Notes: generated by a model not told the origin, from the sequence alone. 64,000 nt of DNA from a bacterium (GCA_035527515.1 DATLAJ010000114.1:7994-71993); one strand, 5' to 3'. Shown: positions 11,280 through 64,000, counted from the stretch's first letter. Numbers and translations are program-made.

Positions 11280-11623
11280 ACAGCCTCTCTAGTTGGGTGG
11301 TAGCCGATATCCATCTGGTTATCTGGAAAGGAGGGAGTATGGCGTCAAACGCCTCTGGCGTACGTGTCTTGGCGGTCAGGGCGAGCGCGGGCAGTCCGGG
11401 TGTTAGAACTGATCCCGAAATAGTAACCTTGGCCGGGAGGCTCCGGGTCTTGATAGAGCTGAAAGCTGGGAATAAATGCGAGATGGCCAACACTATTCCC
11501 TGTCCGAATAGTCTTGCGGGCGTTGAGATTATATTTTAGCCTTTGAGCCGGGTGTTCTGTTATACTGATAAGTTACAAAGTCGGTGTGCTCTAGTAGCCT
11601 TCAAGTTTGAGGAGTTAAGATAG

Positions 11624-13317: not shown

Positions 13318-13800
13318 ATGAGAAAGAAGGCCAACAGAAGCGTTCTGACCATGGCGATTACTATGGTCGTGGTTGTCCTGTTCGTCTGGCACTTCAATCG
13401 CAGGTTCGAGCAGATCAAGCAAAGGGCCAGGCCCAGCGTTCAGCCGTCTTCAGCGGCAGAACAGGTCGAGAGCCCGGCGCCGAGCTCCGAGCAGGCCAGT
13501 CTGACCAAGCCTGGTCAGGCAAAGCGCCCCATACTTGGCTGCTTCTGCGCGGAGTGGCGCTACGGCTGCGACGAGATGAGAGAGCTTCTGGACAAGATGA
13601 AGGCTCGGTTCGGCGAGAGGCTTCAGGTTCGCATGATCGACCCAGCTGACGATCCTGATCTGGCCAAACAGTTTAGGATCAACAACTTGCCGACTTTCAT
13701 TGTGTTCGACGCGCGCGGCAAGCTCGTTCTGCGGAGCGAGGGAGCGATGACGGAGGAGGATCTGCTCGCAGCGCTCGGTCGGGCTGGGCTTGGCGATTGA
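13318..13800 (+). CDS. membrane-anchored thioredoxin-like protein (atypical CxxxxxxC site)
   Basis: N-terminal TM helix, then CFCAEWRYGC in the position of the Trx WCGPC motif and the Trx-fold signature NNLPTFIVFDARGKLV. Start 3 nt after the carbamoyltransferase stop. Confidence 0.55.
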   Translation: MRKKANRSVLTMAITMVVVVLFVWHFNRRFEQIKQRARPSVQPSSAAEQVESPAPSSEQASLTKPGQAKRPILGCFCAEWRYGCDEMRELLDKMKARFGERLQVRMIDPADDPDLAKQFRINNLPTFIVFDARGKLVLRSEGAMTEEDLLAALGRAGLGD

Positions 13801-16800: not shown

Positions 16801-17014
16801 ACGTGTTGAGCTTCAGTTTGGGGGAATACATCTGGGCGTGTCTCTGAACGATGATGGTCTCTTGGGAGACGGCGTGGCGGGGGACGGCATATACTCGGCC
16901 GAGCTCGAGGTCCCGACAGGGGTTATCGCTGGACAATACGAGCTTCAGATAGTCGTGTGGGACGCTTTGGGTCTATCTAGCGAGCCGTGGCCGGCGCTAC
17001 ATGTTGCGCCGTAG
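13790..17014 (+). CDS. secreted clostripain-like cysteine peptidase (family C11) with large C-terminal Ig-like/beta-sandwich extensions
   Basis: Signal peptide. Catalytic His block FGLVLWDHGDGW and catalytic Cys block DLVGMDACLMGMVEVAYQ, the C11 hallmark. About 650 aa of repeat-like beta-rich sequence follows. Confidence 0.75.
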   Translation: MAIEGMTLKSLFIFVAILLLSVCSVNELRGEEPSALDEKSWTFVVYMSADNSLSSTAPVDLNEIEGAIESVDANVVILIDQFSNADTRAYRARYDPAGPQNSAIVSDEVPLGDIESGWDGLTELDLANPDTLLAFSKWAVANYPADHFGLVLWDHGDGWRKKLAPSKPRKDICYDGYASMDMLELKSALAALKQETGVTFDLVGMDACLMGMVEVAYQIKDLCKVVVASEETVPWDGWDYGFLSEIEPGSDLTPKELAMHIVNYFYNSYTDGKSDPDDESYVVLSAIDEAKFDDGFLSSLGSLAQLLIGSMEHSKSKVYDAYLSSYRMEDYWYYVDLKDFMLALSAQNISEAISAAAQQVASRHDDVVYYHRSGAGLPYCYGLSIYFESEEYSYDERYDGNQGFLDFTADTLWDEVLRSYYNPGSVSPQIDFELLPDTEDFDEDITLSCFIHSELPLVEGEVLVYYRTGSAARSAFDWTATALAPGVLPEQYVATLPGQPENTQVFYYLYAENIAGSYSTSPADAPDQVHSFWVRTDSVPPSIEHTPLVSQPAARGSFQVTCIVRDSVGVDEQSVKLYYHYSNEDDAFVHLTKQGDSTYYAEIPGAGLVPGDRVSYRLEASDIAKTPNRALLPEAGYFSFSIIPSLGSVLLIDDGSGGSADIFLDVLEAAGYVVHTHNPGESLPDLPFDVVIYCLGDASEPLPAYYEGLVEYVLGGGRLLIESGDLAWSACQQYPSKLSDLRRYVLHIDSWKADYGDILILKKPEAQLATAPNVLEATVGFQGEFLATRDVCVPAADGNVLYDWSRYSQPGLIYFDEDGDDTNGGQIVYMTFAIPYVSDEQGGRAQLIENCAYYLSDYVRDTTPPVLADVNPRTGATVPPDTSISFSVVDGDTGVDQSTVELLVNGSAVSTQITRLESEHRLAVSYAPPGGFEPETFYQIQISACDFASNCLTDDTHWFETSTASARAPVILAGGFLQTQVLSVGETLKVVAMPKTFGETNAVERVELQFGGIHLGVSLNDDGLLGDGVAGDGIYSAELEVPTGVIAGQYELQIVVWDALGLSSEPWPALHVAP

Positions 17015-51074: not shown

Positions 51075-52043
51075 GTGTATTATGATGCACGTATTATTCG
51101 CATCGACATCTTATTAACCCCAGCGAAGGAGGCAAGCGCCATTAACAGGAGAACCTTTCTCAAACTGGGCGGGATATCTACGCTGTGCTCGTTATTTGCG
51201 CCTCGTTTAGTGAGACGGGCAGCGGCGCAGAGTGACCAGCCCAACTATTGGGTGGGGAGCAAGTATTTCATTCAGGACACGGTAGAGACGAGCGATCTGC
51301 CGGAGCGCATCTGGGCCAGGATCAACGGCGCATGGCACGTTTATCCCTCGAGGGAGCTGCCGGAGGCGTTTGTGGACTGGAACCTCAGCTCGAGGGTCGG
51401 GATGCTCCAAGACATGCTGAATGGCGTGATGCCCTCTCACTACGACGGCCCTCACAACGCCGCGGTCGCAACCTATTCGCGATTTGGGCGAGGAGACAGC
51501 GAGTTTCAGGTCAACAACGCGTATAAGGGGATGGGCATGGTGCCCAAACCTGACCGTATCGAGGAGGTCATCGACCGGCTGAAGATGACGGAGGGGCACA
51601 CCTTGAATGCGAAGGTGCAGATACTGATCGACAACTACTCAGACGAGACGATATGGGACAGGAGCAAGCAAGGCTCTCTGGAGCTTTACAGCTCGTCGGC
51701 CTTTGAGACGCACAGCTTCAAGAACCAAATGCGCAACCCCATCTCGACGGTCGCCTTCTTGGATTCCACGTCTTACGAGCTCAGGACGATCACCAGGCTC
51801 TTGCACCACAACGACCCGACTCTTTCAGAAGACGAACGCAACATGTTAGAATACATAAACGCCGTCCATGCCTACTTCCATGGCGGGTCGACCGATAACA
51901 TCGTGGCCGTCTATTACGTCATCGAGGTCTTCGACAACTCCCCTGGCCCATCCCATGCAGGGCACAGAGTTGTTCCGCCGCTAGACAGGTCAAGAGGAGC
52001 CTCGCTGCCTAAAGGCCGGAAGCCTGAGGCGCTCGGCTACTAA
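51075..52043 (+). CDS. Tat-signal hypothetical secreted protein
   Basis: Twin-arginine motif INRRTFLKLGGISTLC near the N-terminus. No recognisable catalytic motif. Confidence 0.5.
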   Translation: MYYDARIIRIDILLTPAKEASAINRRTFLKLGGISTLCSLFAPRLVRRAAAQSDQPNYWVGSKYFIQDTVETSDLPERIWARINGAWHVYPSRELPEAFVDWNLSSRVGMLQDMLNGVMPSHYDGPHNAAVATYSRFGRGDSEFQVNNAYKGMGMVPKPDRIEEVIDRLKMTEGHTLNAKVQILIDNYSDETIWDRSKQGSLELYSSSAFETHSFKNQMRNPISTVAFLDSTSYELRTITRLLHHNDPTLSEDERNMLEYINAVHAYFHGGSTDNIVAVYYVIEVFDNSPGPSHAGHRVVPPLDRSRGASLPKGRKPEALGY

Positions 52044-52068
52044 TCCAAAAGATTCTAAGGAGATAGCA

Positions 52069-53130
52069 ATGTCCAAGATAATCATTGTCGCTTGCTCGAT
52101 TCTCGCAGTGCTGGCCGTTCAGTCGGTCAGCTTGGCGCAGAGTGCGCGAGTGGAGGTTACGACTGACAGTGCCTCGTATTACTTTGGCGATACGGGAGAG
52201 GTCATACTATCTGCGACCAATGGCGATACTGAGCTCGCGGTGGACTTCTACCTCGCGCTGCTCGCGCCGGACGGCGCGCCCTACTTCTTCCCCGGATGGG
52301 GCAACGCCATGCAGCCTGCCATAAGTGGCCTCGTGCTTCCGCCTCACTTCTCGACGGGGCCGTTCGTCTATTTCACGTTCCCGATTCCCGGAGGCAAGCC
52401 GCCCGTCCTCACAGACGGCACGCACGCGTTTGCGGCCGCGTTCATGGCGGCTGGCTCAACTGACCTCACTCAGGGCATAAGCTTCGCCTACTTCGACGTC
52501 TCATCCGAGTCGCAAGGCTGTCCGCCTGGGATGGTGCGCATTCCCGCCGGGCCGTTCGCAATGGGCGACACGTCAGACACGGGCTACAAGGACGAATACC
52601 CGCTCCACGACGTCTATCTCGACTCGTTCTGCATCGACACATACGAATACCCCAACAACGTGGGCGTCGTCCCCAACTCAGGACTCAGCTGGATTGAGGC
52701 CGAGTCGCTGTGCACTCAGCAGGGCAAACGGCTCTGTTCTGAGTCGCAGTGGGAGAAGGCCTGCAAGGGGCCGCTAGGCTCCATCTACCCTTATGGCGAT
52801 TGGTATGATGGCGTCAGATGCTGGACAGAGATGGGCTACAACGACGGCCAGGCAGGCGAATCCGGCGGCCGGAGTCGCTGCACGAACGTCTATGGCGTGT
52901 TCGACATGAGCGGCAACACTTGGGAGTGGGTGAACGACTTCTACGACGCCGAGTATTACAGCTCGTCGCCCGCTGAGAACCCGACGGGACCACCTGTCGG
53001 CGCCACCAGCAAGGTCATGAGAGGAGGCGCTTGGTACCACGGGGGCCTGGCCACACGCTGCTCCTTCCGAGGCGCATACGACCCCGAGCGGGGCCGCTTT
53101 GCCGCGGGCGTCCGCTGCTGCGCCGACTGA
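52069..53130 (+). CDS. secreted formylglycine-generating-enzyme (SUMF1/FGE-sulfatase) domain protein with N-terminal ~115-aa accessory domain
   Basis: Signal peptide. N-terminal VEVTTDSASYYFGDTGEVILSATNGDTELAVDFYLALLAPDG. C-terminal FGE blocks RIPAGPFAMGD, YPNNVGV, GVFDMSGNTWEWVND, RGGAWYH and GFRCC. Confidence 0.75.
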   Translation: MSKIIIVACSILAVLAVQSVSLAQSARVEVTTDSASYYFGDTGEVILSATNGDTELAVDFYLALLAPDGAPYFFPGWGNAMQPAISGLVLPPHFSTGPFVYFTFPIPGGKPPVLTDGTHAFAAAFMAAGSTDLTQGISFAYFDVSSESQGCPPGMVRIPAGPFAMGDTSDTGYKDEYPLHDVYLDSFCIDTYEYPNNVGVVPNSGLSWIEAESLCTQQGKRLCSESQWEKACKGPLGSIYPYGDWYDGVRCWTEMGYNDGQAGESGGRSRCTNVYGVFDMSGNTWEWVNDFYDAEYYSSSPAENPTGPPVGATSKVMRGGAWYHGGLATRCSFRGAYDPERGRFAAGVRCCAD

Positions 53131-53627
53131 GCACGCGCCTTGTTTAGGCGCGGCTCACGAGCCGCCGTTTATCCTGAAGGGGTTACCCCAATAATCAAGT
53201 TGAGCGGAACTGACCCAAATCAGATTGACTTGTGAGGAGGGGGCGAAGGGAGATTTTTGGGGCAGGCCAGGTGGTTTTTCGGGGTGTCAGTCAAAGGATG
53301 GTGTGTCGGTGGGCGCAGATTCGGTGATCTGGGGCAGATGACGCCTGCTTTTGACGCTTCGTCGCATCGAGGTCGAGATCGGATTAAGCCCTAAGGATTT
53401 CAAGTACTATGCTATCGCGGACGGGCTGAAGGAGGTACTGAGCTCCACAATGAAGCCTTGTCGCGATCCAAAGCCGCCTCCCGTCCCCCCAGATGACTAT
53501 CTGCTTCGCGCCAACTGGAGGGGGCTGGCCAATGTGAATACGAAAACTCCTCAAGAAAAAGGATTGACAAGAAAGAGGTACCCAGCTAGCATGACTCTTT
53601 ATAGTTTGTGAGGGTGACCTGCTGGGA

Positions 53628-56093
53628 ATGGTGGATGATGCAAGTGAAGTTATCACGCCTAAACTGCCTCAAAGTTGCGGTTTATGCCGCTTCGCGCTAA
53701 GCAGCTACCAGCTTTCTACAATTGATCCAGTAAAGAGCCAAGGACTGTCCGTGATAAGCAAGAAGGCAGCATACGCCGATGTCACGCAGGCGTGCCGAGG
53801 AATAGCCGATGGTACCATGGTGAAAAAGGCGTGGATGGGGTTTGACCAGTTTATGTCTCTTGCCGATGCGTTAATGGATGGCCTCGTCGTTACAGATTTA
53901 CATGGTGGGATATTAGACGTTAATAGGGCCGCCTCAGAGAAACTATGCGGCGAAGAACAAGATCTCGTTGGTACAAGGCTTACCCGATTCATCACGGTGG
54001 AAGATCTGCCCAGATTCGCCCGTCATTGGCAGGACCTTCTCTCTGACCGACCGCAAATCAGAGTCTCAGAATATCGTGCGCGCCAAAGGGATGGAGATGC
54101 GATTTCGCTAAGTATTGCCCTTTCCATTCTGAGGGATTCTATCGGTCGTCCCAAGAACGTTATCGCCGTACTCAGGGACACCCCACAACGCAAAGTTACT
54201 GAAGACGTCCTTCGAGAAAATGAAGAGAAGTACCGGAGTCTTTTTGAAAACGAATCCGATGCGTTGATAGTTTTTGATGCCGAGACGCAGCGCATCGAAG
54301 AGGCCAACTTAGCCGCTTTGGAGCTGTTCGGCTACAGCGAGGAAGCCTTTTTGGGATTGACGTTTTCGGACATCTCGGCTGAAAAGACCCAAGTGGCGGA
54401 GTCGGTGCAAGAACTCATCAGTGGATTGCCACAGGGCAGATATGTGCCGCTGGGCTACTTCCGAAAGAAAGGCGGCACGATTTTTCCTGGCGAGATACGT
54501 ACCGGTGCTTTTGTCGCTGGTGGAAGGCAAAAGATCATCGGGGTCGTTCGCGATATCTCACAGCGCATGGAGACTGAGGCGTCGCTATCTGAAAGCCGTA
54601 GCGAGTGCCGGGAGCTGGTTGAGAAGATAAGCGATGTGATATACGAGATCGACTTGAATGGCGTGATTAAGTACATCAGCCCGTTAATCGAATCAGTACT
54701 AAACTACACTCCCCAGGAACTTATCGGACGACGCTTCAGCGATTTCGTTCATCCGGATGATCTGCGCCGCGTCGAGAATGGCTTTAGAGAGGCACTTGGC
54801 GGCGATCAGAAACGGAGCGAGTATCGAATGGTAGGAAAGACCAACGAGATTCGCTGGGTCCGTTCTTCCAGCTGGCTCACCAAGAAAGGGAATCAACCAG
54901 TTGGATTGCGCGGAGTACTGATCGATATCACCGAAACCAAACGGATGGAGCGCCGATTTGTGCAGGCCCAGAAGATGGAAGTGTTGGGAACGCTCGCGGG
55001 AGGCATCGCCCATGACTTCAACAACATACTGGCTTGTATCATGGGGTATGCGCAGTTAAGCGTGACTAGAGTGCAGAAAGGAACGATACTGGCGGAGAAC
55101 TTGACTGGTATTCTTAATGGAGCTCTTCGTGCAAAAACTCTGATCGAGCAGATCATATCCTTCGGCCGTCCCGGGAAAGAGGGAAGGCGGCCGGTCTCTA
55201 TGACCCCCATTATCAAGACAACCCTTAAATTCCTGGAGGCTTCTCTGCCAGCCAGTATCGAGATTCGGCAGTACTTAAGAGCAGACCGAGATGTCATCCA
55301 GGCCGACGCCACGCAGATTCAAGAGGTGTTGATGAATCTGTGTGCCAACGCGGCCCAAGCGATGGATGAGGCGGGTGGGACTCTGAAGGTGGGAGTCAGT
55401 AACGTAGAATTGGTGGCCTCGGCCCCTGGTCTGGACCCGGGAATCCGGCCGGGTTCGTATCTGAAGCTGAGCGTGTCCGATACAGGCTGTGGCATCCCGC
55501 CTGAGATACGTGACAAGGTCTTTGATCCATATTTCACTACGAAGGACAAGGACCACGGTACTGGCCTGGGATTACCCAGGGTTCTGGGCATCGTGAAGGA
55601 GCATGATGGCGCTATCCGGATTGAGAGCGAGGTGGGACACGGGACTACGGTGAACGTCTTTTTCCCGCTGTGCAACAAAGAGGTTGTGGAAGCACAACCT
55701 CTGTCCAAAGCGCGCAACATCGGCAAAGAGCGCATCCTCTTGGTTGACGATGAGGAATCGGTCGTCAATCAGGGCAGACAAATGCTGGAGTCTTTAGGTT
55801 GCACTATCGAATCGACCGCCAGCGGCAAAGAAGCCCTGGCGGTGTTTCGTCTGGAGCCGGACCGATTCGACCTGGTCATCACCGACATGACCATGCCGTC
55901 TATGTTGGGCGACAGGTTAGCGCAGGAGCTGATGAGGATTCGCACTGACATTCCGGTCATCCTTTGTGCTGAACACAGCGAGAGGGTCTCTGGGGGAAAG
56001 GCCAAGGATATAGGTGTTCGCGCCTTTATCGTGAAACCCTTCGCCGAACAGGAATTTGCAGAGACCGTTCGGCGAGTGTTGGACGGACGGTGA
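53628..56093 (+). CDS. hybrid sensor histidine kinase (multiple PAS domains, HisKA, HATPase, C-terminal receiver)
   Basis: PAS blocks. H-box HDFNNILACIMGYAQL, G-boxes DTGCGIPPE and GTGLGL, receiver ILLVDDEESV...DLVITDMTMP. The true start may be the in-frame ATG 53817 (MVKKAWMG), because the first 63 codons look non-protein-like. Confidence 0.8.
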   Translation: MVDDASEVITPKLPQSCGLCRFALSSYQLSTIDPVKSQGLSVISKKAAYADVTQACRGIADGTMVKKAWMGFDQFMSLADALMDGLVVTDLHGGILDVNRAASEKLCGEEQDLVGTRLTRFITVEDLPRFARHWQDLLSDRPQIRVSEYRARQRDGDAISLSIALSILRDSIGRPKNVIAVLRDTPQRKVTEDVLRENEEKYRSLFENESDALIVFDAETQRIEEANLAALELFGYSEEAFLGLTFSDISAEKTQVAESVQELISGLPQGRYVPLGYFRKKGGTIFPGEIRTGAFVAGGRQKIIGVVRDISQRMETEASLSESRSECRELVEKISDVIYEIDLNGVIKYISPLIESVLNYTPQELIGRRFSDFVHPDDLRRVENGFREALGGDQKRSEYRMVGKTNEIRWVRSSSWLTKKGNQPVGLRGVLIDITETKRMERRFVQAQKMEVLGTLAGGIAHDFNNILACIMGYAQLSVTRVQKGTILAENLTGILNGALRAKTLIEQIISFGRPGKEGRRPVSMTPIIKTTLKFLEASLPASIEIRQYLRADRDVIQADATQIQEVLMNLCANAAQAMDEAGGTLKVGVSNVELVASAPGLDPGIRPGSYLKLSVSDTGCGIPPEIRDKVFDPYFTTKDKDHGTGLGLPRVLGIVKEHDGAIRIESEVGHGTTVNVFFPLCNKEVVEAQPLSKARNIGKERILLVDDEESVVNQGRQMLESLGCTIESTASGKEALAVFRLEPDRFDLVITDMTMPSMLGDRLAQELMRIRTDIPVILCAEHSERVSGGKAKDIGVRAFIVKPFAEQEFAETVRRVLDGR

Positions 56094-56117
56094 CCATCGG
56101 TTTTGTTTCGAGATGTT

Positions 56118-56132
56118 TGGCACAAGAATTGC
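56118..56132 (+). promoter_or_regulatory. sigma54-type (-24/-12) promoter TGGCAC-N5-TTGC
   Basis: tttggcacaagaattgcg read directly. It matches the consensus TGGCAC-N5-TTGC exactly, lies 25 nt after the hybrid kinase stop, and heads the operon containing an NtrC-family (sigma54-dependent) activator. Confidence 0.5.
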
Positions 56133-56352
56133 GTCGCAAAGCCGGATAGGGTTTATTCTCCTGAGAATGGGCTCAGCGGGCCGAGGGATTGATTTGAGAA
56201 CAAACAAAGGCACCGGAGGCTACTTCGGCGCCGCATTTTTCGCCTTTGGTTTGCGTTCAGACAAGGATTCTGGAGCTGCTGGTTTATGGAAGTGGGTCTA
56301 TGGTGTTAATTCGATAGGTTATGGGAAGGATTCCATATATTGACCGTGGAAT

Positions 56353-56991
56353 ATGACTGAAAAGGCGGACATTAAGAAGTTCTCAAGGTCCTTGATCTAC
56401 GTGCCCATTGTGCATACGCAGGCCGATATGGGTGTTTTAGGCAAATTGATTTGGCGGGCCGGTCTGCACAAGATGGGGGAAACGGTTCTGAAACGCAAGG
56501 CGTCCGCTATAGATCAGATATGGACCACCATAGAAACGACTATCAACCGATTGGACCTGGTTTATGCTAGAGTTCGGCTGTATCAGGATAGTTTGCCTGT
56601 TTGCGGGCGTGAGCTGGAGATCGTTCAGGAACTGGCAGCTTCGGGCAGCCGCAATCATCAGCTTCTTTTGCGTATGATCGAGAAGGGCGCCACCCTCATG
56701 GGAACCGAATCGGGTGAGCTTCTGATCAAGGAATACGAATTGTCCAAACGCATCGTGGATGCAGGCAATGCGTCCAGAACGGCCAAGATGAAAACACATC
56801 CAAAGACATTGGCCGAATCGTTACTCAAAGACCGCGATCGTTATATTGCGCACCGCATCAATCATACCCTTTGTGCGGGAGATACGGGGGTTCTTTTTTT
56901 GGGGATGTTTCACTCACCCGAGCCGTTTCTCGACGGGGATATTCACCTGGCATACCCCATCGAAAAACCTGCCGGGTCTGCGGGGCAGTGA
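56353..56991 (+). CDS. hypothetical protein (first gene of putative sigma54-driven operon)
   Basis: 212-aa ORF with protein-like composition and no recognisable motif. It ends 24 nt before the NtrC-like gene. Confidence 0.5.
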   Translation: MTEKADIKKFSRSLIYVPIVHTQADMGVLGKLIWRAGLHKMGETVLKRKASAIDQIWTTIETTINRLDLVYARVRLYQDSLPVCGRELEIVQELAASGSRNHQLLLRMIEKGATLMGTESGELLIKEYELSKRIVDAGNASRTAKMKTHPKTLAESLLKDRDRYIAHRINHTLCAGDTGVLFLGMFHSPEPFLDGDIHLAYPIEKPAGSAGQ

Positions 56992-57014
56992 GGGGATTAG
57001 AGGGAGCGAAACCC

Positions 57015-58427
57015 ATGGAGAGACTCGATGTCCGGATTTTGATTGTGGATGACGACAGGGACATCTGCCGGATACTTGCAACGCTCATAGAACGTGAGGG
57101 ATTCAAAGCCATTATGGCGAATGATGGCGAGCCGGCGCTGGCGTCCATCCGTTCCGCCTCGCCCGATCTTATGTTACTTGACATGAGAATGCCTAACATG
57201 GATGGCTCAGAGGTGTTGGCGCACGCCAAGGAACTAGACCCCGACCTTCCCGTGGTCATTATCACGGCGTTTGGCGAAATCCACGGCGCGGTCGAAGCGA
57301 TAAAGGCCGGTGCGTACGATTATCTCACCAAGCCCTTTGAGCATGACGATGTGATTCATGTAGTTCACAGAGCGCTTTCAGAGAGAGAACTCAAACGGAA
57401 ACTGAAGAACCTTACCAGCCAGATCAGAAAGGACAGCCCGCTGAGAGAGACGATGGGACCCAGCGAGTCGATCGGCAACCTTATCGCGATGGTCGAGCGA
57501 GTCGCCCGGTCCGATTTTACCGTGGTGATCCAAGGGGAGACAGGGTCTGGAAAAGAGGTTGTGGCCCGGGCCATACACAAGGCCAGTTTGCGTTCCCAAG
57601 GGCCTTTTGTTCCATTGGATTGCGGGGCCATTCCCGATGCGCTACTGGAAAGCGAGCTGTTTGGTTACGAGAAAGGCGCATTTACCGGGGCGGGACAGAG
57701 AAAAGTTGGCAAACTCGTATGCGCCCAGGGTGGGACGCTGTTTTTAGATGAGGTCAGCAACCTGCCACTATCTTCACAAGCGAAACTTCTACGGGTTATT
57801 CAGGAGAAAGAGGTCATGCCGGTGGGCAGCAACAAACCTGCCAAGATAGACGTTCGTCTCCTGACCGCCTCCAACCAGGACCTTAACAGCCTCGCCGAGG
57901 CAGGCGCTTTTCGCAGCGATCTCTTTTTCCGGCTGAAGGAGTTTACCATAAGAGTACCACCCCTGCGGGAGCGGAGAGATGATATACCTTATCTGGCGAA
58001 ACGTTTTCTGGACATCGCCAACGCAGAATTGGACAAGAACGTGAAGGGGTTCTCTGAAGGGGCCCTGGAAACGCTGCTGGATTATCCATGGCCCGGGAAT
58101 GTGCGTGAGTTCCGGTCAACCATCCGCCGCGCGGTTCTCTTAGCCGACGAGATCATCACCAAAGGTCATCTGGATGTCCGGAAGCGATCATATCCGGTGT
58201 CGTGGGACGTAGGGCCTCAAATGAAGAGAGGACTATTAGAGAAGGCCTCCTTGAAGACCATCGTGCGTGAGAGCACGGCGGCAGTGGAAAGAGAGGTTCT
58301 TACCCGAACGTTGCAGTCCACAGGTGGGAACAAGGCCAAAGCAGCGCGGATTCTCAGAATAGACTACAAAACTATCCATACTAAGGTCAAGAAACTGGGT
58401 ATTCAAACCAACAGGAGGTCACCATGA
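57015..58427 (+). CDS. sigma54-dependent response regulator (NtrC family: receiver + AAA+ sigma54-interaction + Fis-type HTH)
   Basis: Start refined to ATG 57015 with RBS gagggattagagggag. Receiver ILIVDDDRDI...DLMLLDMRMP, Walker A GETGSGKE, GAFTGA-type ESELFGYEKGAFTGA, and C-terminal HTH AARILRIDYKTIHTKVKKLGI. Confidence 0.85.
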   Translation: MERLDVRILIVDDDRDICRILATLIEREGFKAIMANDGEPALASIRSASPDLMLLDMRMPNMDGSEVLAHAKELDPDLPVVIITAFGEIHGAVEAIKAGAYDYLTKPFEHDDVIHVVHRALSERELKRKLKNLTSQIRKDSPLRETMGPSESIGNLIAMVERVARSDFTVVIQGETGSGKEVVARAIHKASLRSQGPFVPLDCGAIPDALLESELFGYEKGAFTGAGQRKVGKLVCAQGGTLFLDEVSNLPLSSQAKLLRVIQEKEVMPVGSNKPAKIDVRLLTASNQDLNSLAEAGAFRSDLFFRLKEFTIRVPPLRERRDDIPYLAKRFLDIANAELDKNVKGFSEGALETLLDYPWPGNVREFRSTIRRAVLLADEIITKGHLDVRKRSYPVSWDVGPQMKRGLLEKASLKTIVRESTAAVEREVLTRTLQSTGGNKAKAARILRIDYKTIHTKVKKLGIQTNRRSP

Positions 58428-58924
58428 GTGACAAAAAGAGCGGAGGCGGCTTCGGAGGGATTCTAGGAGGTTTTGCGGACCTGGTAGATAAGCTTGGTGA
58501 GCTTGCGGAAAAGGGGGAGCGGCTCTCTAGAACCGGAGAGATCGATTTCAAACGAAAGGGAAAGGACCTGAAGGGGGTATATGGTTTCTCCGTCAAAGTG
58601 GGTTTGGGAGGGGATGAAGTCAAGATTGAGCCCTTCGGAAACATCCGCAGAGATAAAGAGTCCGGAGAAGCTGTGGTGCAGGAGATTCGCGAGCCCATTG
58701 CGGATGTCTTCGAGGAGAAGGACCATACATTGGTTGTCGTCGAGATGCCGGGTATCAGTGAGGATGATGTGCAAATTGACGTCAAGGACGACCTGCTGAC
58801 GCTATATGCTGAACACGGGGAGAAGAAATACCGCAAGGAAGTCCTGATGCCGAAAAGCTATCCCAAAGAGAAGATGTGTATTTCCTGCAACAACGGCATT
58901 TTAGAGATAAAGTGCGCCCTTTAG
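58424..58924 (+). CDS. Hsp20/alpha-crystallin family small heat-shock protein with Gly-rich N-terminus
   Basis: Alpha-crystallin domain pattern VVVEMPGISEDDVQIDVKDDLLTL...YRKEVLMP...NGILEIK and N-terminal SGGGFGGILGGF. ATGA overlap with the upstream regulator gene. Confidence 0.7.
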   Translation: MSDKKSGGGFGGILGGFADLVDKLGELAEKGERLSRTGEIDFKRKGKDLKGVYGFSVKVGLGGDEVKIEPFGNIRRDKESGEAVVQEIREPIADVFEEKDHTLVVVEMPGISEDDVQIDVKDDLLTLYAEHGEKKYRKEVLMPKSYPKEKMCISCNNGILEIKCAL

Positions 58925-59004
58925 CCGTTTAGGATATCAAGGGACGGTCCCGCGGCCGCCACGGGCCAAGCATACTTCAGGCGAGTGATTGAAGGAGACG
59001 ATGC

Positions 59005-61116
59005 ATGAAAGAGACAGAAGACCTTAAACTGAAAGTTACGGAAGCTCTCGGCAAGGACGTCGGAAGGTGCTTTGCCCGAATGGGCCCGGAAGACATGAAG
59101 CGGCTGGATTTGGCCGTTGGTGACATCGTAGAGATCGAGGTCAAGCGCAAAACCGTCTGTAAGGCCATGCCAGCCTACAAGGAGATTCGCGGCCAGTCCC
59201 GCGTACAGCTCGATGGCCTCACCAGAGAGAACGTCGGCGCCGGCCTGGATGAGTTCGTGCGCATCCGCAAAACGGTCTGTCGTCCTGCGGGGAAAATATC
59301 ACTGGCCCCGACAAGCATCACCCCGACCGAGCGTGATCTGAAGTATATCGGAAGTCTTCTGGACGGCCTCCCAGTCATGGCGGGCGACCGGATCCGGGCC
59401 AATCTGTTTGGCAGCCGGTCGGCCGACTTCAAGGTGCAGCATACAGTCCCAGAAGGCCCTGTTCTCATCAATCCCAGTACCCAGCTTACCATCGTCAAGA
59501 CGAAGGAAGCGGGGTCCGCCAGCCGGGTGACCTACGAGGATATCGGCGGGCTTAAGCCTCAGCTTTTGCGGATACGCGAGATGATCGAGCTGCCGCTGCG
59601 TTATCCGGAGGTTTTCAGACGCCTCGGGATCGACGCCCCCAAGGGGGTGCTGCTGCACGGTCCTCCGGGATGCGGCAAGACCCTCATTGCCCGGGCCATC
59701 GCCCACGAAACCGAAGCCCAGTTCTTTTCCGTCAGCGGCCCGGAAGTTGTGCATAAGTTCTACGGCGAGAGCGAGGCGCATCTGCGTAAGATATTTGATG
59801 AGGCCAGTCGCAAGGGCCCCAGCATCGTCTTTCTCGACGAAATCGACGCCATTGCCCCGCCCAGGGAAAAAGTGGTGGGGGACGTTGAAAAGCGGATGGT
59901 CTCCCAGCTTTTGGCCCTCATGGACGGGCTTAGCAAGCGTCAGAATGTCATCGTTATCGCGGCCACCAATATCCCAAACGCGCTGGACCCAGCCCTGCGG
60001 CGCCCCGGCCGCTTTGACCGGGAGATCACCATCCCGATTCCGGACCGCATCGGCCGATTGGAGATACTGGACATCCACAGCCGCGGCATGCCGCTGGCCC
60101 CGGACGTGGACATGGCGCACTTAGCCGAGATTACGCATGGTTTCGTCGGCGCCGATCTTGAAGCCCTCTGCCGCGAGGCCGCCATGCTCTGTTTGCGACG
60201 GATCATGCCGGATATCGATTTTGGGCTGACATCCATCCCCTATGAGCGGCTCGCGGCCCTAGAAGTCCACATGGACGATTACCGCGCGGCGCTGCGGGAG
60301 GTGGAGCCATCGGCCATTCGAGAGGTCTTCGTCGAGGTCCCGAATGTCCGCTGGGAGGACGTCGGCGGCCTCGACGCGGTTAAGGAGAGTCTGGTGGAAG
60401 CGGTGGAATGGCCCCTGAAATTCTCCCGTCTATTTGATCAGGCCGGGATCAAGCCGCCCAAGGGGATTCTCCTCTCCGGTTCGCCCGGTTGTGGGAAGAC
60501 GCTAATGGCCAAGGCGGTTGCCAATGAAACGCACGTCAACTTTATTGCCGTCAAGGGGCCGGCACTCCTCTCTAAATATGTGGGCGAATCCGAAAGGGCC
60601 GTCCGCGAGGTCTTTCAAAAGGCTAGGCAGGCTGCCCCTTGTATCATTTTCTTTGATGAAATCGATGCCCTGGTTCCGGTTCGAGGCGCCTCATCGGATT
60701 CGCACGTGTCGGAACGGGTGCTCAGTCAAATCCTGACCGAACTTGACGGGATCGAGGAACTCAAGGGGGTCCTGGTGTTGGGCGCGACAAACCGCGCCGA
60801 TATGCTTGACCCGGCGGTGCTGAGGCCCGGACGTTTTGACGAGATTATCGAGATCCCCATGCCGGACAAAAATGGTCGGGAGGAGATCTTGGCGATTCAT
60901 CTGCGCAACAAACCACTGGCAGCGGATATTCGCCTAGATGATCTGGCGGCAAGGACAGAGGGTCTCAGTGGGGCCGAAATTGCCGGCATCTGTTACAAAG
61001 CAGCGATGAGTGCGCTCCGACGCGCTGTGCAGGCCGGATGGGACGCAGGGGCCGACGATCTTCCCGATCTGTGCATTACGGCAGACGATCTGTTTGGCAC
61101 TCTGGAGGCGGTGTGA
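59005..61116 (+). CDS. CDC48/VAT/p97-type double-ring AAA+ ATPase
   Basis: CDC48 N-domain start MKETEDLKLKVTEALGKDVGR...AVGDIVEIEV. D1 Walker A GPPGCGKT and Walker B IVFLDEIDA. D2 Walker A GSPGCGKT and Walker B IIFFDEIDA, plus SRH regions. Length 703 aa. Confidence 0.85.
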   Translation: MKETEDLKLKVTEALGKDVGRCFARMGPEDMKRLDLAVGDIVEIEVKRKTVCKAMPAYKEIRGQSRVQLDGLTRENVGAGLDEFVRIRKTVCRPAGKISLAPTSITPTERDLKYIGSLLDGLPVMAGDRIRANLFGSRSADFKVQHTVPEGPVLINPSTQLTIVKTKEAGSASRVTYEDIGGLKPQLLRIREMIELPLRYPEVFRRLGIDAPKGVLLHGPPGCGKTLIARAIAHETEAQFFSVSGPEVVHKFYGESEAHLRKIFDEASRKGPSIVFLDEIDAIAPPREKVVGDVEKRMVSQLLALMDGLSKRQNVIVIAATNIPNALDPALRRPGRFDREITIPIPDRIGRLEILDIHSRGMPLAPDVDMAHLAEITHGFVGADLEALCREAAMLCLRRIMPDIDFGLTSIPYERLAALEVHMDDYRAALREVEPSAIREVFVEVPNVRWEDVGGLDAVKESLVEAVEWPLKFSRLFDQAGIKPPKGILLSGSPGCGKTLMAKAVANETHVNFIAVKGPALLSKYVGESERAVREVFQKARQAAPCIIFFDEIDALVPVRGASSDSHVSERVLSQILTELDGIEELKGVLVLGATNRADMLDPAVLRPGRFDEIIEIPMPDKNGREEILAIHLRNKPLAADIRLDDLAARTEGLSGAEIAGICYKAAMSALRRAVQAGWDAGADDLPDLCITADDLFGTLEAV

Positions 61117-61976
61117 TGGTTGATAGTAGATGTCCGACCAGTCCGACGTGTCCGACTGGTTCGACAGCGTCGCCGCACGAAGCGCAAGGCTTCTATCTTT
61201 ACGGTTTTGCGCAGGCGGCCAGACTGCCTTTGCTGAAGGTCGCCGGCATGGATGCCCGCTACCCGGTCTCACAATGGACGTGCAAGGACATCGTGGCCGT
61301 GGCCAGCAAGGTGATGGTTGCGGATTTCAGCGGGCAGTCGGCCGAAACGAACCTCAAGGACCTGGCCTGGGTGGGCCCGCGGGCCTGTCGTCACCAGGAA
61401 GTGGTGGAGGCTGTGATGCGGCACTCACCGGTGCTGCCAGCAGGCTTCGGGACGATTTTTGCCTCATCCCAGCGGATGGTGGAATTGTGTGTCCGTCACC
61501 ATGGCGCCATTTCGCGTTTCTTGGGCGAGGTGGATAACAAAGCGGAATGGGCGCTGAAAGGATTCTTGGACAGGGCGCAAGCGCACAGGTCGCTGAATTC
61601 GGAGTTGATGGCCGGTGAGAAGGAGCTTCTCGCATCTGTATCACCGGGTAAGCTCTATTTTATGCAGAGGCAGATGGCGGCCGAGGTTGAGCAGCAATTG
61701 AACCAGAGATTGAAAGCGATCTTGACTGGAATTTGGGAAGACCTGGGGCGGTATGCGGCGCGTTTCTGCGAACGGAAAGTGCTTTCCCGTGATGCCACCG
61801 GCTTGGATGTGGACATGGTTCTGAATTGGGCGTTTCTGCTTTCCAGAGATTCTGAGGAGGTCTTCGCGGCGTGCCTCAACCGAATGAAGGCCGCGCAGGC
61901 GAAGCACGGGCTTCACTTTGAACTCTCCGGGCCGTGGCCCCCTTACAGCTTCTCCCCGACCTTGGAAATGGTGTGA
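61116..61976 (+). CDS. GvpL/GvpF-family (gas-vesicle assembly) protein, paralog 1
   Basis: Start taken at ATG 61116, overlapping the CDC48 stop. Family-like features are GFYLYGFA near the N-terminus, VLPAGFGTIF, EWALKGF, and the C-terminal motif LSGPWPPYSF, the hallmark ending of GvpF/GvpL proteins. Confidence 0.65.
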   Translation: MVDSRCPTSPTCPTGSTASPHEAQGFYLYGFAQAARLPLLKVAGMDARYPVSQWTCKDIVAVASKVMVADFSGQSAETNLKDLAWVGPRACRHQEVVEAVMRHSPVLPAGFGTIFASSQRMVELCVRHHGAISRFLGEVDNKAEWALKGFLDRAQAHRSLNSELMAGEKELLASVSPGKLYFMQRQMAAEVEQQLNQRLKAILTGIWEDLGRYAARFCERKVLSRDATGLDVDMVLNWAFLLSRDSEEVFAACLNRMKAAQAKHGLHFELSGPWPPYSFSPTLEMV

Positions 61977-62000
61977 AAGGTAACGAGGCTTAGCAGGCAG

Positions 62001-62744
62001 ATGAAATACCTCCTTTATTGCATATTTGCTGACGAGAAGAGCTCGCCAGCCGTCCACCTTGCAGGGGTCGACGGCCAACCGATTGTGGTTGTATCGCACA
62101 GTGGTCTCAGCGCCTCGGTCTCACCATGTCTCCATCCAAGCCTCACACCGGATATCACGCGCATTCAGGCTTACCAAAGGATCATCGAACGATTTAACCA
62201 CCACCGCACCATCATCCCGATGCGCTATGGCTGTCTGTTCCCGAACAGGGAAGAGGTCGGGCTGCATTTGGGGCAGCGTGCCCACTACTATTTGTCCCTG
62301 TTAGGTGAGCTCAAGGGCAGCGTGGAGATGGGAATCCGGGTCATGATGTCAGAAGGCCGATTGCCCCTTGAAGAGCTCGAGCGCAAGAGGGAGGCACACC
62401 CGATGTCGAATACTCAATCTCCGTTGTCCGGCAAGCAGTACTTGACGGCACGCAAAGCCCATTATTCCCGTGAGGACCGTAATCTAACGGAAATCGAGCA
62501 CATAATCGCGCAGACCCACACCGCATTTTCTGGGCTCTATGTCCGGTTCAAATCGGAATGTGGGACGACCGAAGTGTCAGCATTGGGCAATCGGGTCCTC
62601 TCCCTCTATTTTCTCGTGCTGCGAGATTCGGTTGAATCGTTTCGGCAAGCGTTCCGGCGTGTCAGCAAGCGAGGGCCCCATAAACTGCTTTTGAGCGGCC
62701 CTTGGCCGCCATACAACTTTGTTACACCCGAGCGCACGAGGTGA
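62001..62744 (+). CDS. GvpL/GvpF-family protein, paralog 2
   Basis: LLYCIF (in the YxYG position), IIPMRYGCLF, and the same C-terminal LLSGPWPPYNF. It sits 24 nt downstream of paralog 1. Confidence 0.65.
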   Translation: MKYLLYCIFADEKSSPAVHLAGVDGQPIVVVSHSGLSASVSPCLHPSLTPDITRIQAYQRIIERFNHHRTIIPMRYGCLFPNREEVGLHLGQRAHYYLSLLGELKGSVEMGIRVMMSEGRLPLEELERKREAHPMSNTQSPLSGKQYLTARKAHYSREDRNLTEIEHIIAQTHTAFSGLYVRFKSECGTTEVSALGNRVLSLYFLVLRDSVESFRQAFRRVSKRGPHKLLLSGPWPPYNFVTPERTR

Positions 62745-62755
62745 CCTGAATCCAC

Positions 62756-64000
62756 ATGACGCCTGAGCCCAATGGTCCTCGGTCAGGGATGCGAAAGGCC
62801 TCTTTGCCGGATTCAACCAAAACCGGAATTGTGCTCGACGGCACCTCCGACTGGCATCAGAAGCTGTATGCCATGCTGCTGGATACGATACCGTCCTCGG
62901 TTCTGATGATCGATCAGAACATGCGTGTCGTGCTTGCCAATCGGAACTTTCTGAAGAAGAGCCGGCGGTCGGTATCCGACACCATCGGTTTCCCGCTGCA
63001 GAATATCTTTCCCGCCGTGATTATCGAGAAGATGGATATCATAGGCCAGATTCGCCAGGTCTTCCGTTCGAGCCAGCCCACCAAAGGGCAGCGGATGTTC
63101 TTTCGATCTCCGGGCGTTTCGATGCGGACTTACTATTACCGTATCGTCCCGTTTGAGTGGCAGGGAAACGTTGAGAATGTAATGCTCTTAATGGATGATG
63201 TAACCGAACAGATCCAATTGAGCGATGAGATTCAACGCGTTCAACGCCATCTGGCGAGTATCTTCGACAGCGCCAGTGACATTATGTTGTCCACTGACAC
63301 CGGCGGAAGGATCCTGTCTTGGAATCCGGCCGCGGAGAGAATCTCCGGGTACAGTTTCACTGAAGTAAAGAACCAGTTTTTTTACAAGTTATGCGCCAAG
63401 GATCATCAGGAGAACGTGAGGAGGATATTCTCCGCGATGAGAACTCGGAGGGATTCGGTCACCGCGGAGTGGAACCTCGTCACGAAAAAGGGGCTCGATA
63501 TCTATGTTTCCTGGGTTTGTTCGCCGATGAAAGACCAACAGTTGGAGACAGCCGGAGTTGTGGTCGTGGGCAGAGATCATACCGAGCACCGCAGAATGGA
63601 AATGCAGCTTCGCCAGTCGCAGAAATTTGCCGCACTGGGCGTGATGGCCGGTGGGATCGCCCATGAGATTCGAAACCCGTTGGCGATCTGTTCTTCGGCC
63701 GCCCAATTCATCTTGGCGGATGACACCTCCCCGGATTTCCGCATCGAATGCGCCAGAAAGATCCACGTGGGGATTGAGAGGGCATCCATTGTTATCGAGA
63801 ATCTGTTAAAATTCGCGCGGCCTTCGGATGGATCGGAAAGGGAGAAGGTCAACCTTCTTGGTATCATCAAAGAGACCATTGCGCTAATTTCCAATCAGAT
63901 CAACATCCAAAAAATCAAGCTCAAATCAGATTTCCCAGCGCAACCGGTATTCATCAACGGCAGTGCCGGTCTGTTGCAGCAGGGGTTCATCAACCTTTTT
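62756..64000 (+). CDS. PAS-domain sensor histidine kinase (3' end beyond window)
   Basis: ATG 62756 opens an ORF that runs to the window edge without a stop. Two PAS-like regions and the HisKA H-box GGIAHEIRNPLA near 63655. It is not in the supplied track because it is truncated. Confidence 0.7.
   Translation, partial: MTPEPNGPRSGMRKASLPDSTKTGIVLDGTSDWHQKLYAMLLDTIPSSVLMIDQNMRVVLANRNFLKKSRRSVSDTIGFPLQNIFPAVIIEKMDIIGQIRQVFRSSQPTKGQRMFFRSPGVSMRTYYYRIVPFEWQGNVENVMLLMDDVTEQIQLSDEIQRVQRHLASIFDSASDIMLSTDTGGRILSWNPAAERISGYSFTEVKNQFFYKLCAKDHQENVRRIFSAMRTRRDSVTAEWNLVTKKGLDIYVSWVCSPMKDQQLETAGVVVVGRDHTEHRRMEMQLRQSQKFAALGVMAGGIAHEIRNPLAICSSAAQFILADDTSPDFRIECARKIHVGIERASIVIENLLKFARPSDGSEREKVNLLGIIKETIALISNQINIQKIKLKSDFPAQPVFINGSAGLLQQGFINLF

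Follow-up and report, generated by a model that had tools for sequence, protein, structure and literature searches.

What would a two-ring Cdc48-type ATPase be doing in a bacterial operon, between a small heat-shock protein and two proteins of the GvpL/GvpF gas-vesicle family? The question is raised by the end of a stretch of 64,000 nucleotides (the window), part of a 101.6 kb metagenome contig from an uncultured bacterium (ENA ERZ27256834). An earlier note had described there a sigma54 promoter, an unknown gene, an NtrC-like activator, an Hsp20, the Cdc48, two GvpL/GvpF paralogues, and a PAS kinase, and it had offered two readings: either shell genes lie just outside the window and a Cdc48-Hsp20 pair handles their product, or the locus is a non-buoyancy proteostasis module. 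All these features are present where they had been placed, on the + strand (open reading frames and Pfam; Table 1). The second reading is rejected for this locus: judged by its genes, the region is a regulatory and accessory operon of the gvrA type, within a Serratia-type gas-vesicle cluster that is complete. We regard as fairly probable an overall explanation that joins this operon type to a quality-control pair made of a GvpH holdase and a GvpZ unfoldase.

Table 1. Features of the regulatory operon at the end of the window (positions in the window)
Feature	Position	Strand	Description
sigma54 -24/-12 element	56118..56132	+	TGGCAC-N5-TTGC, ~220 nt upstream of gvpY
gvpY orthologue	56353..56991	+	212 aa; TIKI/TraB/ChaN-like alpha/beta hydrolase fold (predicted)
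gvrA orthologue	57015..58427	+	470 aa; NtrC-family sigma54-dependent response regulator
gvpH orthologue	58424..58924	+	166 aa; Hsp20-type small heat-shock protein
gvpZ orthologue	59005..61116	+	703 aa; full two-ring Cdc48/VAT-type AAA+ ATPase
gvpF2 orthologue	61116..61976	+	286 aa; GvpL/GvpF family (PF06386)
gvpF3 orthologue	62001..62744	+	247 aa; GvpL/GvpF family (PF06386)
gvrB orthologue	62756..64000	+	PAS histidine kinase, truncated by the window end; 509 aa on the full contig

A gvrA-type operon and the cluster around it

As a reference we took the Serratia-group gas-vesicle cluster of a sister strain of Serratia sp. ATCC 39006 (L088), whose gene order is the published Serratia order (PMC9501494). 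When the proteins were compared with this cluster by tblastn, the best match was each time the gene at the corresponding position: GvrA is 47.5% identical to its counterpart (3e-124), GvrB 51% (1e-171), and GvpH 51%, while GvpF2 and GvpF3 match best the gene directly after gvpZ (1.7e-34) and the second GvpF gene after gvpZ (2.9e-25). The order found, with the NtrC gvrA, the Hsp20 gvpH, gvpZ, two gvpF, the PAS kinase gvrB, and the receiver gvrC all co-oriented, mirrors the Serratia gvr operon, as the earlier note had stated. On these sequence comparisons, the window genes are assigned as orthologues of Serratia gvpY, gvrA, gvpH, gvpZ, gvpF2, gvpF3, and gvrB. They had been described as overlapping or abutting, which is broadly right, with successive junctions from gvpY to gvrB of +23, -4, +80, -1, +24, and +11 nt. 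For gvpF2, the longest-ORF start at 61038 was rejected in favour of the one that overlaps the gvpZ stop by 1 nt.

The operon is preceded by TGGCACAAGAATTGC (56118-56132), an intergenic site with the GG-N10-GC core and the TGGCAC-N5-TTGC consensus. It had been called perfect, which it is, and it is the sole exact match in the window; 0.17 such matches are expected by chance, 14 of 100 shuffles contained at least one, and the site on its own is weakly significant. The sigma54 call is supported by a second exact TGGCAC-N5-TTGC on the same contig, 98 nt upstream of gvpA, and by enrichment in relatives: a site with at most one mismatch precedes 17% of the gvpY homologues and 43% of those of gvpA, whereas random 350-nt windows contain one in 1.1% of cases. 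Sigma70-like promoters and terminators showed no excess within 55900-64000, and no shared upstream motif of at least 11 nt was found between the gvpY and gvpA promoter regions. GvrA carries the Pfam domains Response_reg, Sigma54_activat (8e-65), AAA_lid_14, and HTH_8. Serratia GvrA is needed for gas vesicles and gvpA1 transcription (PMC4982088). This transcription relies on GvrA, GvrB, and GvrC, and Serratia genetics shows gvpF2, gvpF3, gvrA, and gvrB to be required and gvrC nearly so. GvrB, as PAS kinase, and GvrC, as receiver, would pass a signal to GvrA, which would activate the sigma54 promoter before gvpA and probably also that of its own operon, in a positive feedback. GvpF2 and GvpF3 would be assembly factors that bind GvpA-family subunits; in Serratia both are essential.

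The shell genes do lie just outside the window, as had been supposed in the first of the two readings. The window shares 12 kb, identical across 52001-64000, with a locus that continues past its end (L001), and on the contig gvrC, a 138-aa receiver, comes after gvrB and is succeeded by the gvpA operon (gene calls and Pfam in L001 and L006). Beginning with gvpA, ~3 kb past the window end, the order is gvpA, a 253-aa protein, gvpN, a 105-aa protein, a 79-aa protein, gvpF1, gvpG, an ArsA-like gene that corresponds to Serratia gvpW, a gvpA2-like gene, gvpK, and a gvpA3-like gene. Gene calls and Pfam place this operon at 13064-20190 of L001, with the succession PF00741, AAA_5, PF06386, PF05120, ArsA, PF05121, and PF00741 (gvpA is PF00741, GvpN is AAA_5, GvpG is PF05120, and GvpK is PF05121; GvpJ-like genes are present too), and the arrangement is repeated on the independent contigs L002 and L004. 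Identities to the reference are 57% for GvpN, 46% for GvpF1, and 47% for the ArsA-like GvpW (tblastn), which is a two-domain ArsA/Get3-like ATPase.

This locus and the Serratia cluster share their genes and, within each operon, the order of these, and both are regulated by an NtrC-type activator. They differ in that the two operons stand here in the opposite order, an inversion on record for Desulfomonile tiedjei and Psychromonas ingrahamii, and in that gvpY is the first gene of the regulatory operon, with a sigma54 site of its own before it, whereas Serratia gvpY ends the structural operon. The 79-aa protein, a CxxC protein encoded between the 105-aa gene (at the gvpV position) and gvpF1, is extra here. 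The host, uncultured and with ~56% GC, is not an enterobacterium. The locus brings nothing categorically new: it is one more cluster of the type known from work on Serratia, a type already in use as an acoustic reporter gene set (bARGSer).

GvpF2 and GvpF3 had been read as GvpL/GvpF paralogues, and both match PF06386 far above its cut-off of 23.6 bits: 172.1 bits (2.7e-50, profile positions 1-244 of 245) and 159.3 bits (2.2e-46, positions 4-244 of 245). The motif VLPxxFG, ascribed to both, does not hold for the second, which reads IIPMRYG. Their scores of 57.9 and 55.3 with the NCBIfam GvpL equivalog, below its cut-off of 200, suggest paralogues rather than strict GvpL. GvpF3 is found with identical sequence on 8 contigs, which come from several samples, and its neighbours are always alike. 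The Hsp20 call was also borne out by profile: GvpH scores 30.6 bits with PF00011 (cut-off 20.8, 3.9e-7), a borderline 22.7 bits with the GvpH model PF05455 (cut-off 22, 1.2e-4), and 123.8 bits with the Hsp20 model NF041800 (4.8e-36, below the cut-off of 140). The Pfam families agree with those of haloarchaeal GvpH, GvpF, and GvpL. To our knowledge, haloarchaeal gvp clusters have no dedicated Cdc48, ArsA, or NtrC/sigma54 genes and are regulated by GvpD and GvpE. Haloarchaeal Hsp20-like GvpH is non-essential and prevents GvpM aggregation; GvpF and GvpL, both essential, make contacts with GvpA and the other accessory proteins, with GvpF binding GvpA (PMC9501494). Unlike its haloarchaeal namesake, bacterial GvpH bears a conserved N-terminal helix (GGILxGLxDLVEKLGELAEKGE).

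GvpZ and the Cdc48 family

GvpZ scores 886 bits with TIGR01243 (cut-off 802.65) and comprises a CDC48_N domain (PF02359), CDC48_2 (PF02933), two AAA (PF00004), and two AAA_lid_3. The closest solved structure is that of VAT from Thermoplasma acidophilum (PDB 5g4f, E 7e-209, residues 5-674), to which it aligns over its full length, including the N domain (double-psi barrel and beta-clam) and the D1 and D2 rings. Both rings have Walker A (GPPGCGKT at 219, GSPGCGKT at 492), Walker B (IVFLDE at 274, IIFFDE at 547), sensor-1 (ATN at 320 and 594), and Arg-finger (RPGRFD at 333 and 607) motifs, and, like VAT, aromatic pore loops (KFYGESE at 251, KYVGESE at 524), which in VAT drive substrate threading. 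As neither ring lacks any of these catalytic and threading motifs, GvpZ looks active. It differs from VAT in being bacterial, in its place within a gas-vesicle operon beside a small heat-shock protein, and in its C-terminus (...LFGTLEAV), from which the HbYX motif for docking to the 20S proteasome is absent. A penultimate Tyr is found in only 7 of 240 close relatives; the C-terminal HbYX is a feature of archaeal Cdc48 and not of the whole family.

The earlier note held that the Cdc48 occupies the slot of another, canonical gene and that such an ATPase had not been described at any gvp locus. Neither statement survives, as Serratia gvpZ is itself assigned to the Cdc48 family. Three primers used for the Serratia gvpZ deletion translate to MSEE, VRWEDVG, and AEMFGDE, peptides that fit gvp-linked Cdc48 proteins at the start, at the D2 boundary, and at the C-terminus. 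On the reference cluster they map to 9994, 11351, and 12137 with 0-1 mismatch, within a 720-aa CDC48 gene (10001-12163) whose 90% cluster includes M9WML1_SERS3 / WP_021013987.1 of Serratia sp. ATCC 39006, and to which the protein studied here is 68% identical. From this sequence mapping we conclude that the Cdc48 of our locus is GvpZ, a name that was never joined to Cdc48 in the literature searched. The same mapping shows that the published deletion keeps the D2 ring in frame, so the "non-essential" phenotype is not that of a clean null and could mislead either way, which calls for caution with the classical gvpZ deletion.

The Cdc48 does not stand in for GvpN either, since a 354-aa GvpN (AAA_5) is also present downstream. 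Both are ATPases encoded in the same cluster, but GvpN, which is needed for enlarging bicones into cylinders, is a single-ring MoxR-type protein without N domain and without threading pore loops. GvpZ is additional to GvpN, not its replacement.

The gene order around this Cdc48 is conserved well beyond Serratia. Among its 80 closest species-level relatives, from more than 10 phyla, gvp genes are found at 76 loci. Hsp20 lies directly upstream in all 76 loci with room for it, GvpF directly downstream in 69 of 74, and an NtrC activator occurs at 65 of the 80. Three of the four loci without gvp genes lie on contigs of 2.5-4.4 kb, whose length does not allow a verdict; the fourth, a long locus from a Myxococcales MAG (L082), has the Hsp20-Cdc48 pair with an NtrC gene and a kinase and no gvp gene within 10 kb. 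In the rearranged clusters of Chromatiaceae (L063, L079), gvpY, gvpH, and gvpZ remain adjacent at the end of the structural operon, apart from gvrB and gvrC. The Cdc48 GvpZ is a conserved member of the Serratia-type cluster in more than 10 bacterial phyla. For the study of AAA+ proteins, it is a bacterial Cdc48 amenable to experiment, and the extremely aggregation-prone GvpA family is its obvious candidate substrate.

Candidate roles of GvpH, GvpZ, and GvpY

Given what is known of the two families and the adjacency of their genes, a holdase-unfoldase model is the most likely mechanism for GvpH and GvpZ. They would form a quality-control pair that keeps aggregation-prone GvpA-family proteins assembly-competent, by capturing misfolded, aggregated, or mis-assembled GvpA/J/S-type proteins and then unfolding or extracting them, so that they re-enter assembly or are removed. 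GvpY, kept beside the pair, may be part of the same module. Such quality control would be helpful and not strictly essential, in line with Serratia genetics. Deletion of gvpH, gvpY, or gvpZ leaves vesicles in Serratia and reduces or abolishes the ultrasound signal in E. coli (PMC10344784). The single gvpH and gvpZ deletions raised vesicle yield in BL21-AI in a 2024 preprint, at odds with the 2023 result and as expected of an accessory gene that is no more than a burden. For gas-vesicle engineering, the model indicates which of the "non-essential" genes would be chaperones that deserve to be kept or tuned.

GvpY itself had no Pfam or NCBIfam match above cut-off. Its predicted structure has a parallel beta-sheet core common to ChaN, HopBA1, RRSP, and EreA-type enzymes, and we propose a TIKI/TraB/ChaN-like hydrolase fold for this putative hydrolase, which is 44% identical to GvpY of the reference cluster. 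In GvpY a His, a Glu, and a His are invariant (H21, E87, H187, after strands 1, 2, and the penultimate one), candidates for the 2His/2Glu (or His-Glu) catalytic set that belongs at the sheet edge in the TIKI/TraB/ChaN/erythromycin-esterase superfamily. It differs from that superfamily in scoring below the Pfam cut-off (15.4 bits with PF01963 TraB_PrgY_gumN, cut-off 26.8; 30 of 45 GvpY relatives give weak matches, the best at 8.8e-4) and in the absence of the ExH form of the first motif, whose first Glu is missing (position 19 is Ile). Three genes given as of "unknown function" in the literature searched can thus be reread: gvpZ as a VAT-like Cdc48 unfoldase, gvpW as an ArsA/Get3-like ATPase, and gvpY as a protein of TIKI/TraB-like hydrolase fold.

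The same proteins might serve the end of the vesicle rather than its making, GvpZ and GvpH, possibly with GvpY, extracting or unfolding subunits of collapsed or surplus vesicles, so that buoyancy is reset and the very stable shell protein is cleared or used again. Cdc48/VAT enzymes act as segregases and draw subunits out of stable assemblies, and this nature, the likeness of GvpZ to VAT, the trio that stays adjacent despite rearrangement in Chromatiaceae, the hydrolase-type fold of GvpY with its invariant His, Glu, and His, and the dispensability of gvpZ for Serratia vesicle formation, as expected of a turnover factor, all speak for disassembly. Yet gvpZ deletion lowered the E. coli signal, suggesting a role in formation over removal, GvpZ has neither an HbYX tail nor a compartmental protease partner, and enzymes of the TIKI type act as site-specific endopeptidases or esterases and do not degrade in bulk (PMC6254334), so that we hold a disassembly role to be rather unlikely. 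The place of gvpZ within the regulatory operon makes a regulatory role possible, in which it would unfold or inactivate GvrA, GvrC, GvpF2, or GvpF3 and tune expression or stoichiometry. It is inside the gvrA-gvrC operon here and in Serratia, and its 1-nt overlap couples it translationally to gvpF2. There are precedents in the haloarchaeal NTP-binding regulator GvpD, which leads to GvpE degradation, and in the balance of accessory proteins, since overexpression of GvpF1, F2, or A3 cut vesicle number or size in Serratia (PMC9501494). Against this, the tightest linkage of gvpZ is to Hsp20 and not to the NtrC activator, the Chromatiaceae trio closes the structural operon, at a distance from gvrB and gvrC, and reported work describes no gvpZ phenotype on gvpA1 transcription; a regulatory remodeller is, to our mind, improbable. 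A general role of the Hsp20-Cdc48 pair in stress or proteostasis, as a module merely travelling with gvp clusters, corresponds to the second of the two readings and seems very improbable indeed: the Myxococcales locus and the dispensability of the pair for Serratia vesicle formation would agree with it, but 76 of the 80 closest relatives keep the pair inside gvp clusters with fixed neighbours, most exceptions are short contigs, gvpA lies 3 kb downstream at our locus, and the Hsp20 matches the GvpH family model.

Returning to the holdase-unfoldase pair, a bolder version would make GvpY, GvpH, and GvpZ a dedicated three-part machine that extracts, unfolds, and possibly clips GvpA-family subunits, in assembly quality control or in the clearance of collapsed vesicles. 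We put this forward as a tentative idea, on the doubtful side. If true, it would provide the first defined natural substrate for a bacterial Cdc48 clade and account for three Serratia genes still labelled "unknown function". In such a machine, a TIKI/TraB-like hydrolase would work with a small heat-shock holdase and with a bacterial Cdc48 that acts independently of the proteasome.

The gas-vesicle unit and its continuation past the window

The gene set that the earlier note had listed for 56118-64000 on the forward strand is confirmed by the ORF list and by profile searches (see the table), including the two ORFs read as GvpF/GvpL, both of which match PF06386. The junctions between successive genes of the unit are +23, -4, +80, -1, +24, and +11 nt. 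Elsewhere in the window, Pfam searches with ten other large ORFs identified surface and polysaccharide genes only, with no taxonomic marker among them. This remainder (e.g., 1096-3129, 13790-17014, and 41190-47840) is rich in genes of secreted or surface type, among them those for right-handed beta-helix/DUF1565 proteins of 2216 and 677 aa, a 1074-aa clostripain-family (C11) peptidase, a PMT_2/GDSL fusion, an asparagine synthase, and a carbamoyltransferase; no gene of this group has a relation to gas vesicles.

Coordinates of the features discussed (window positions unless a locus is named)
Feature	Position	Strand	Matches and remarks
Hybrid kinase, 821 aa	53628-56093	+	three PAS, HisKA, HATPase_c, receiver
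Sigma54 site TGGCACAAGAATTGC	56118-56132		sole exact TGGCAC-N5-TTGC within the 64 kb window
gvpY, 212-aa ORF	56353-56991	+	no family match (Pfam, NCBIfam at E 0.01 or better)
NtrC-type activator (gvrA)	57015-58427	+	Response_reg, Sigma54_activat 8e-65, HTH_8
Hsp20 (gvpH)	58424-58924	+	PF00011 3.9e-7; PF05455 (GvpH) barely over cut-off
GvpH N-terminal segment, residues about 9-35	58424-58530		GGILxGLxDLVEKLGELAEKGE
Complete Cdc48 (gvpZ)	59005-61116	+	CDC48_N, CDC48_2, two AAA domains; TIGR01243 886 bits, cut-off 802.65
GvpL/GvpF, first (gvpF2)	61116-61976	+	PF06386 2.7e-50
GvpL/GvpF, second (gvpF3)	62001-62744	+	PF06386 2.2e-46
PAS histidine kinase (gvrB)	62756 to past window end	+	ORF and profile search
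79-aa CxxC protein	L001 15684-15923		between the 105-aa gene in gvpV position and gvpF1
ArsA/Get3-like ATPase, two domains	L001 16969-19059 (about window 68969-71059, outside)		between gvpG and gvpA2-like gene
ArsA/Get3-like counterpart, strain CE70	L088 3046-4959
CDC48 gene, strain CE70	L088 10001-12163		gvpZ primers at 9994, 11351, 12137
Serratia-group gvpZ, site of the published deletion	L088 9994-12157		N domain and D1 removed by the deletion
Rearranged clusters, Thiocapsa/Chromatiaceae	L063 8739-12010; L079 8723-12127		gvpY-gvpH-gvpZ still together
Hsp20-Cdc48 pair, Myxococcales MAG	L082 9448-12133		CAYWPR010000083.1

In the 64 kb window, tblastn with two GvpA queries (labelled Anabaena and Halobacterium) gave no gvpA match better than E 1. 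Exact copies of GvpF3 and Cdc48, with the same neighbours, are also encoded on a 101.6 kb ENA metagenome contig (L001) as well as on independent contigs from JGI and Logan, and the window is identical to the 101.6 kb contig across the 12 kb that they share. There, the kinase is followed by a 138-aa receiver, GvpA (75 aa, PF00741), a 253-aa protein, GvpN (AAA_5), a 105-aa protein, a 79-aa protein, GvpF, GvpG, a 696-aa two-domain ArsA ATPase, a 41-aa GvpA-like peptide, GvpK, and a 105-aa GvpA/J-like protein. The assignment of the unit to gas vesicles was right, and since the genes from GvpA to GvpK, including those for GvpN and GvpG, lie downstream on the same contig, the proposal that shell genes would be found just outside the window is correct. 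Its alternative, a non-buoyancy module of GvpF/L and Cdc48, is ruled out by the gene context, and so is the replacement of GvpN by Cdc48, because the contig carries both genes. Relative to Serratia, the two operons are in inverted order, an arrangement already described in Desulfomonile tiedjei and Psychromonas ingrahamii.

Two genes of the structural operon deserve mention. ArsA was linked to gvp clusters in a 2010 report (PMC2963123), and an ArsA-like ATPase is present within the fetched flanks of only 30 of 80 Cdc48-linked loci. The 79-aa protein has two CxxC pairs (zinc-ribbon-like), occurs in 40 of the 80 loci, is absent by tblastn from the Serratia-group locus L088, and is possibly an unnamed accessory gvp gene.

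GvpZ of the Serratia cluster and the linkage of Cdc48 to gvp genes

In the Serratia literature, GvpV, W, X, Y, and Z are 'of unknown function' (PMC4982088, PMC9501494). We traced the identity of gvpZ through the primers used for its deletion (PMC4982088, supplement), which, once translated, read MSEE (gvpZ_5R, ATG TCT GAA GAA), VRWEDVG (gvpZ_3F), and AEMFGDE (gvpZ_3R). In the window Cdc48, D2 starts with the motif VRWEDVGG, AEMFGDE occurs in the C-terminal tail of the gvp-linked Cdc48 from Methylobacter and Crenothrix, and the Methylobacter protein also starts with MSEE. Used as a query, the latter retrieves a 720-aa 'CDC48 family AAA ATPase' from Pectobacteriaceae strain CE70, a sister strain of Serratia sp. 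ATCC 39006, and the 90% cluster of this protein includes M9WML1_SERS3 / WP_021013987.1 of ATCC 39006. The gas-vesicle locus of CE70 (L088) encodes GvpN, 105 aa, GvpF, GvpG, ArsA (637 aa), GvpA-like, GvpK, 87 aa, GvpA-like, then 192 aa, NtrC, GvpH, CDC48, GvpF, GvpF, PAS kinase, and receiver, which is the order published as gvpN-V-F1-G-W-A2-K-X-A3-Y / gvrA-H-Z-F2-F3-gvrB-gvrC. In L088, the gvpZ primers fall within the CDC48 gene, gvpW_5R on the ArsA start, and gvpY_5R on the start of the 192-aa gene; by tblastn, the best L088 match of every other window protein is its positional counterpart. From the primer mapping, the 90% cluster, and the published order, we conclude on sequence grounds that GvpZ is Cdc48 and GvpW the ArsA-like ATPase. 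The view that no described gvp locus has a Cdc48 must therefore be abandoned: it is the gvpZ of the Serratia model cluster and is widespread. Of interest, we found no naming of GvpZ as Cdc48 in the searchable literature, although the 2011 and 2012 Serratia papers might mention an AAA domain in GvpZ.

The close bacterial relatives of the window Cdc48 number in the thousands. Scanning one genome per species gave 80 Cdc48 loci (65-93% identity) from Desulfobacterota, Acidobacteriota, Planctomycetota, Lentisphaerae, Verrucomicrobiota, Calditrichaeota, Sumerlaeota, Binatia, Myxococcota, Clostridia, Thermoleophilia, and Gammaproteobacteria, the last including Thiocapsa, Thiodictyon, Methylobacter psychrophilus, Crenothrix, Shewanella salipaludis, and Zooshikella. 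In these 80 loci, tblastn with the cluster proteins places Hsp20 directly 5' of Cdc48 in all 76 that have room for it and GvpF directly 3' in 69 of 74, and it detects GvpY, the 212-aa protein, in 65 of the 80. Genes of the gvp type are found in 76; of the four loci that lack them, three are contigs of just 2.5-4.4 kb. In the rearranged clusters of purple sulfur bacteria (Thiocapsa/Chromatiaceae, L063 and L079), gvpY-gvpH-gvpZ remain adjacent and close the structural operon; they follow a gvpA3-like gene and are separated from both gvpF2/F3 and gvrB/C.

Sigma54 promoters

The perfect TGGCAC-N5-TTGC promoter of the earlier note is present and unique in the window, although, taken alone, it is only mildly unlikely by chance (0.17 exact matches expected, at least one in 14 of 100 shuffles). 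On the contig, gvpA is also preceded by an exact site, at a distance of 98 nt. When up to one mismatch is allowed, 43% of the gvpA homologues and 17% of the gvpY homologues in the 80 loci have such a site upstream; the other genes tested reach 0-8%, and random windows 1.1%. Apart from the promoter and a single 9-mer, nothing is shared by the regions upstream of the two sites, and no common activator motif was found. Upstream of the unit adjoins a co-oriented hybrid kinase gene that stops 25 nt ahead of the sigma54 site, so that the region where activator sites are expected falls within its coding sequence. Scans for sigma70-like promoters and terminators inside the unit showed no excess, being under the shuffle expectation, and an Rfam search of 53000-64000 gave no match.

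GvrA, GvrB, and GvrC are all needed for gvpA1 transcription in Serratia (PMC4982088). In the simplest reading, a signal from GvrB/GvrC would reach GvrA and, through it, the gvpA promoter; in the window organism, the GvrA cascade probably acts on its own operon's promoter as well.

Possible roles of GvpZ, GvpH, and GvpY

The window Cdc48 can be aligned over its whole length with VAT of Thermoplasma, an archaeal Cdc48 (5g4f, E 7e-209), and both rings have intact Walker A, Walker B, sensor-1, and Arg-finger motifs. Its pore loops are aromatic in both rings (D1 KFYGESE, D2 KYVGESE), an arrangement like the one that serves substrate threading in VAT. Unlike archaeal Cdc48, which docks the 20S proteasome via an HbYX tail, it lacks this tail, and a penultimate Tyr is found in only 7 of 240 relatives, which argues that it probably works without a compartmental protease. 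A haloarchaeal GvpH homologue keeps the GvpA-like GvpM from aggregating, and GvpA is bound by GvpF-type proteins (PMC9501494). F2 and F3 are essential in Serratia. Deletion of gvpH, gvpY, or gvpZ leaves vesicles in Serratia and reduces or abolishes the signal in E. coli (PMC10344784); contrary to this loss, a later preprint reports increased yield in another strain.

Given the features of Cdc48, its small heat-shock protein and GvpF neighbours, and the genetics, we favour the inference of a quality-control pair, in which GvpH would be the holdase and GvpZ the unfoldase acting on GvpA-family proteins. That Hsp20 and Cdc48 form an unrelated stress module is now unlikely; it would fit L082, the one long locus among the 80 that lacks gvp linkage, where the pair (68% identity) has a divergent NtrC-type regulator and a kinase nearby and gvp genes are absent from the 10 kb to either side. 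Two other readings of GvpZ remain, one in which it would take apart or recycle collapsed vesicles and one that gives it a regulatory role like that of GvpD. The published Serratia in-frame gvpZ deletion encodes MSEE-LE-VRWEDVG..., with codons 1-4 fused to about codon 451, and keeps the entire D2 AAA ring; therefore, the 'non-essential' phenotype does not come from a null allele.

The 'unknown gene' of the earlier note can be identified as GvpY from its match to the L088 protein (44% identity, 1e-47, tblastn). Its 2166 homologues are all hypothetical or unnamed and without Pfam domain. H21, E87, and H187 are among the 26 invariant positions of an alignment of 45 sequences, the AlphaFold2 model is confident (pLDDT 85.8, pTM 0.82), and 30 of 45 family members have weak matches to PF01963 (TraB_PrgY_gumN), all under the cut-off. 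This conservation, the model, and the weak matches point to GvpY as a candidate hydrolase and a possible partner of GvpH and GvpZ, a lead and not a result. Searches of solved structures by sequence gave only chance-level TPR matches for GvpY and no match for GvpF3, and a description of GvpY as TIKI-like was not found in the searchable literature. In GvpH, the N-terminal segment is the best conserved outside the alpha-crystallin domain (79 sequences), and is a candidate partner-binding helix.
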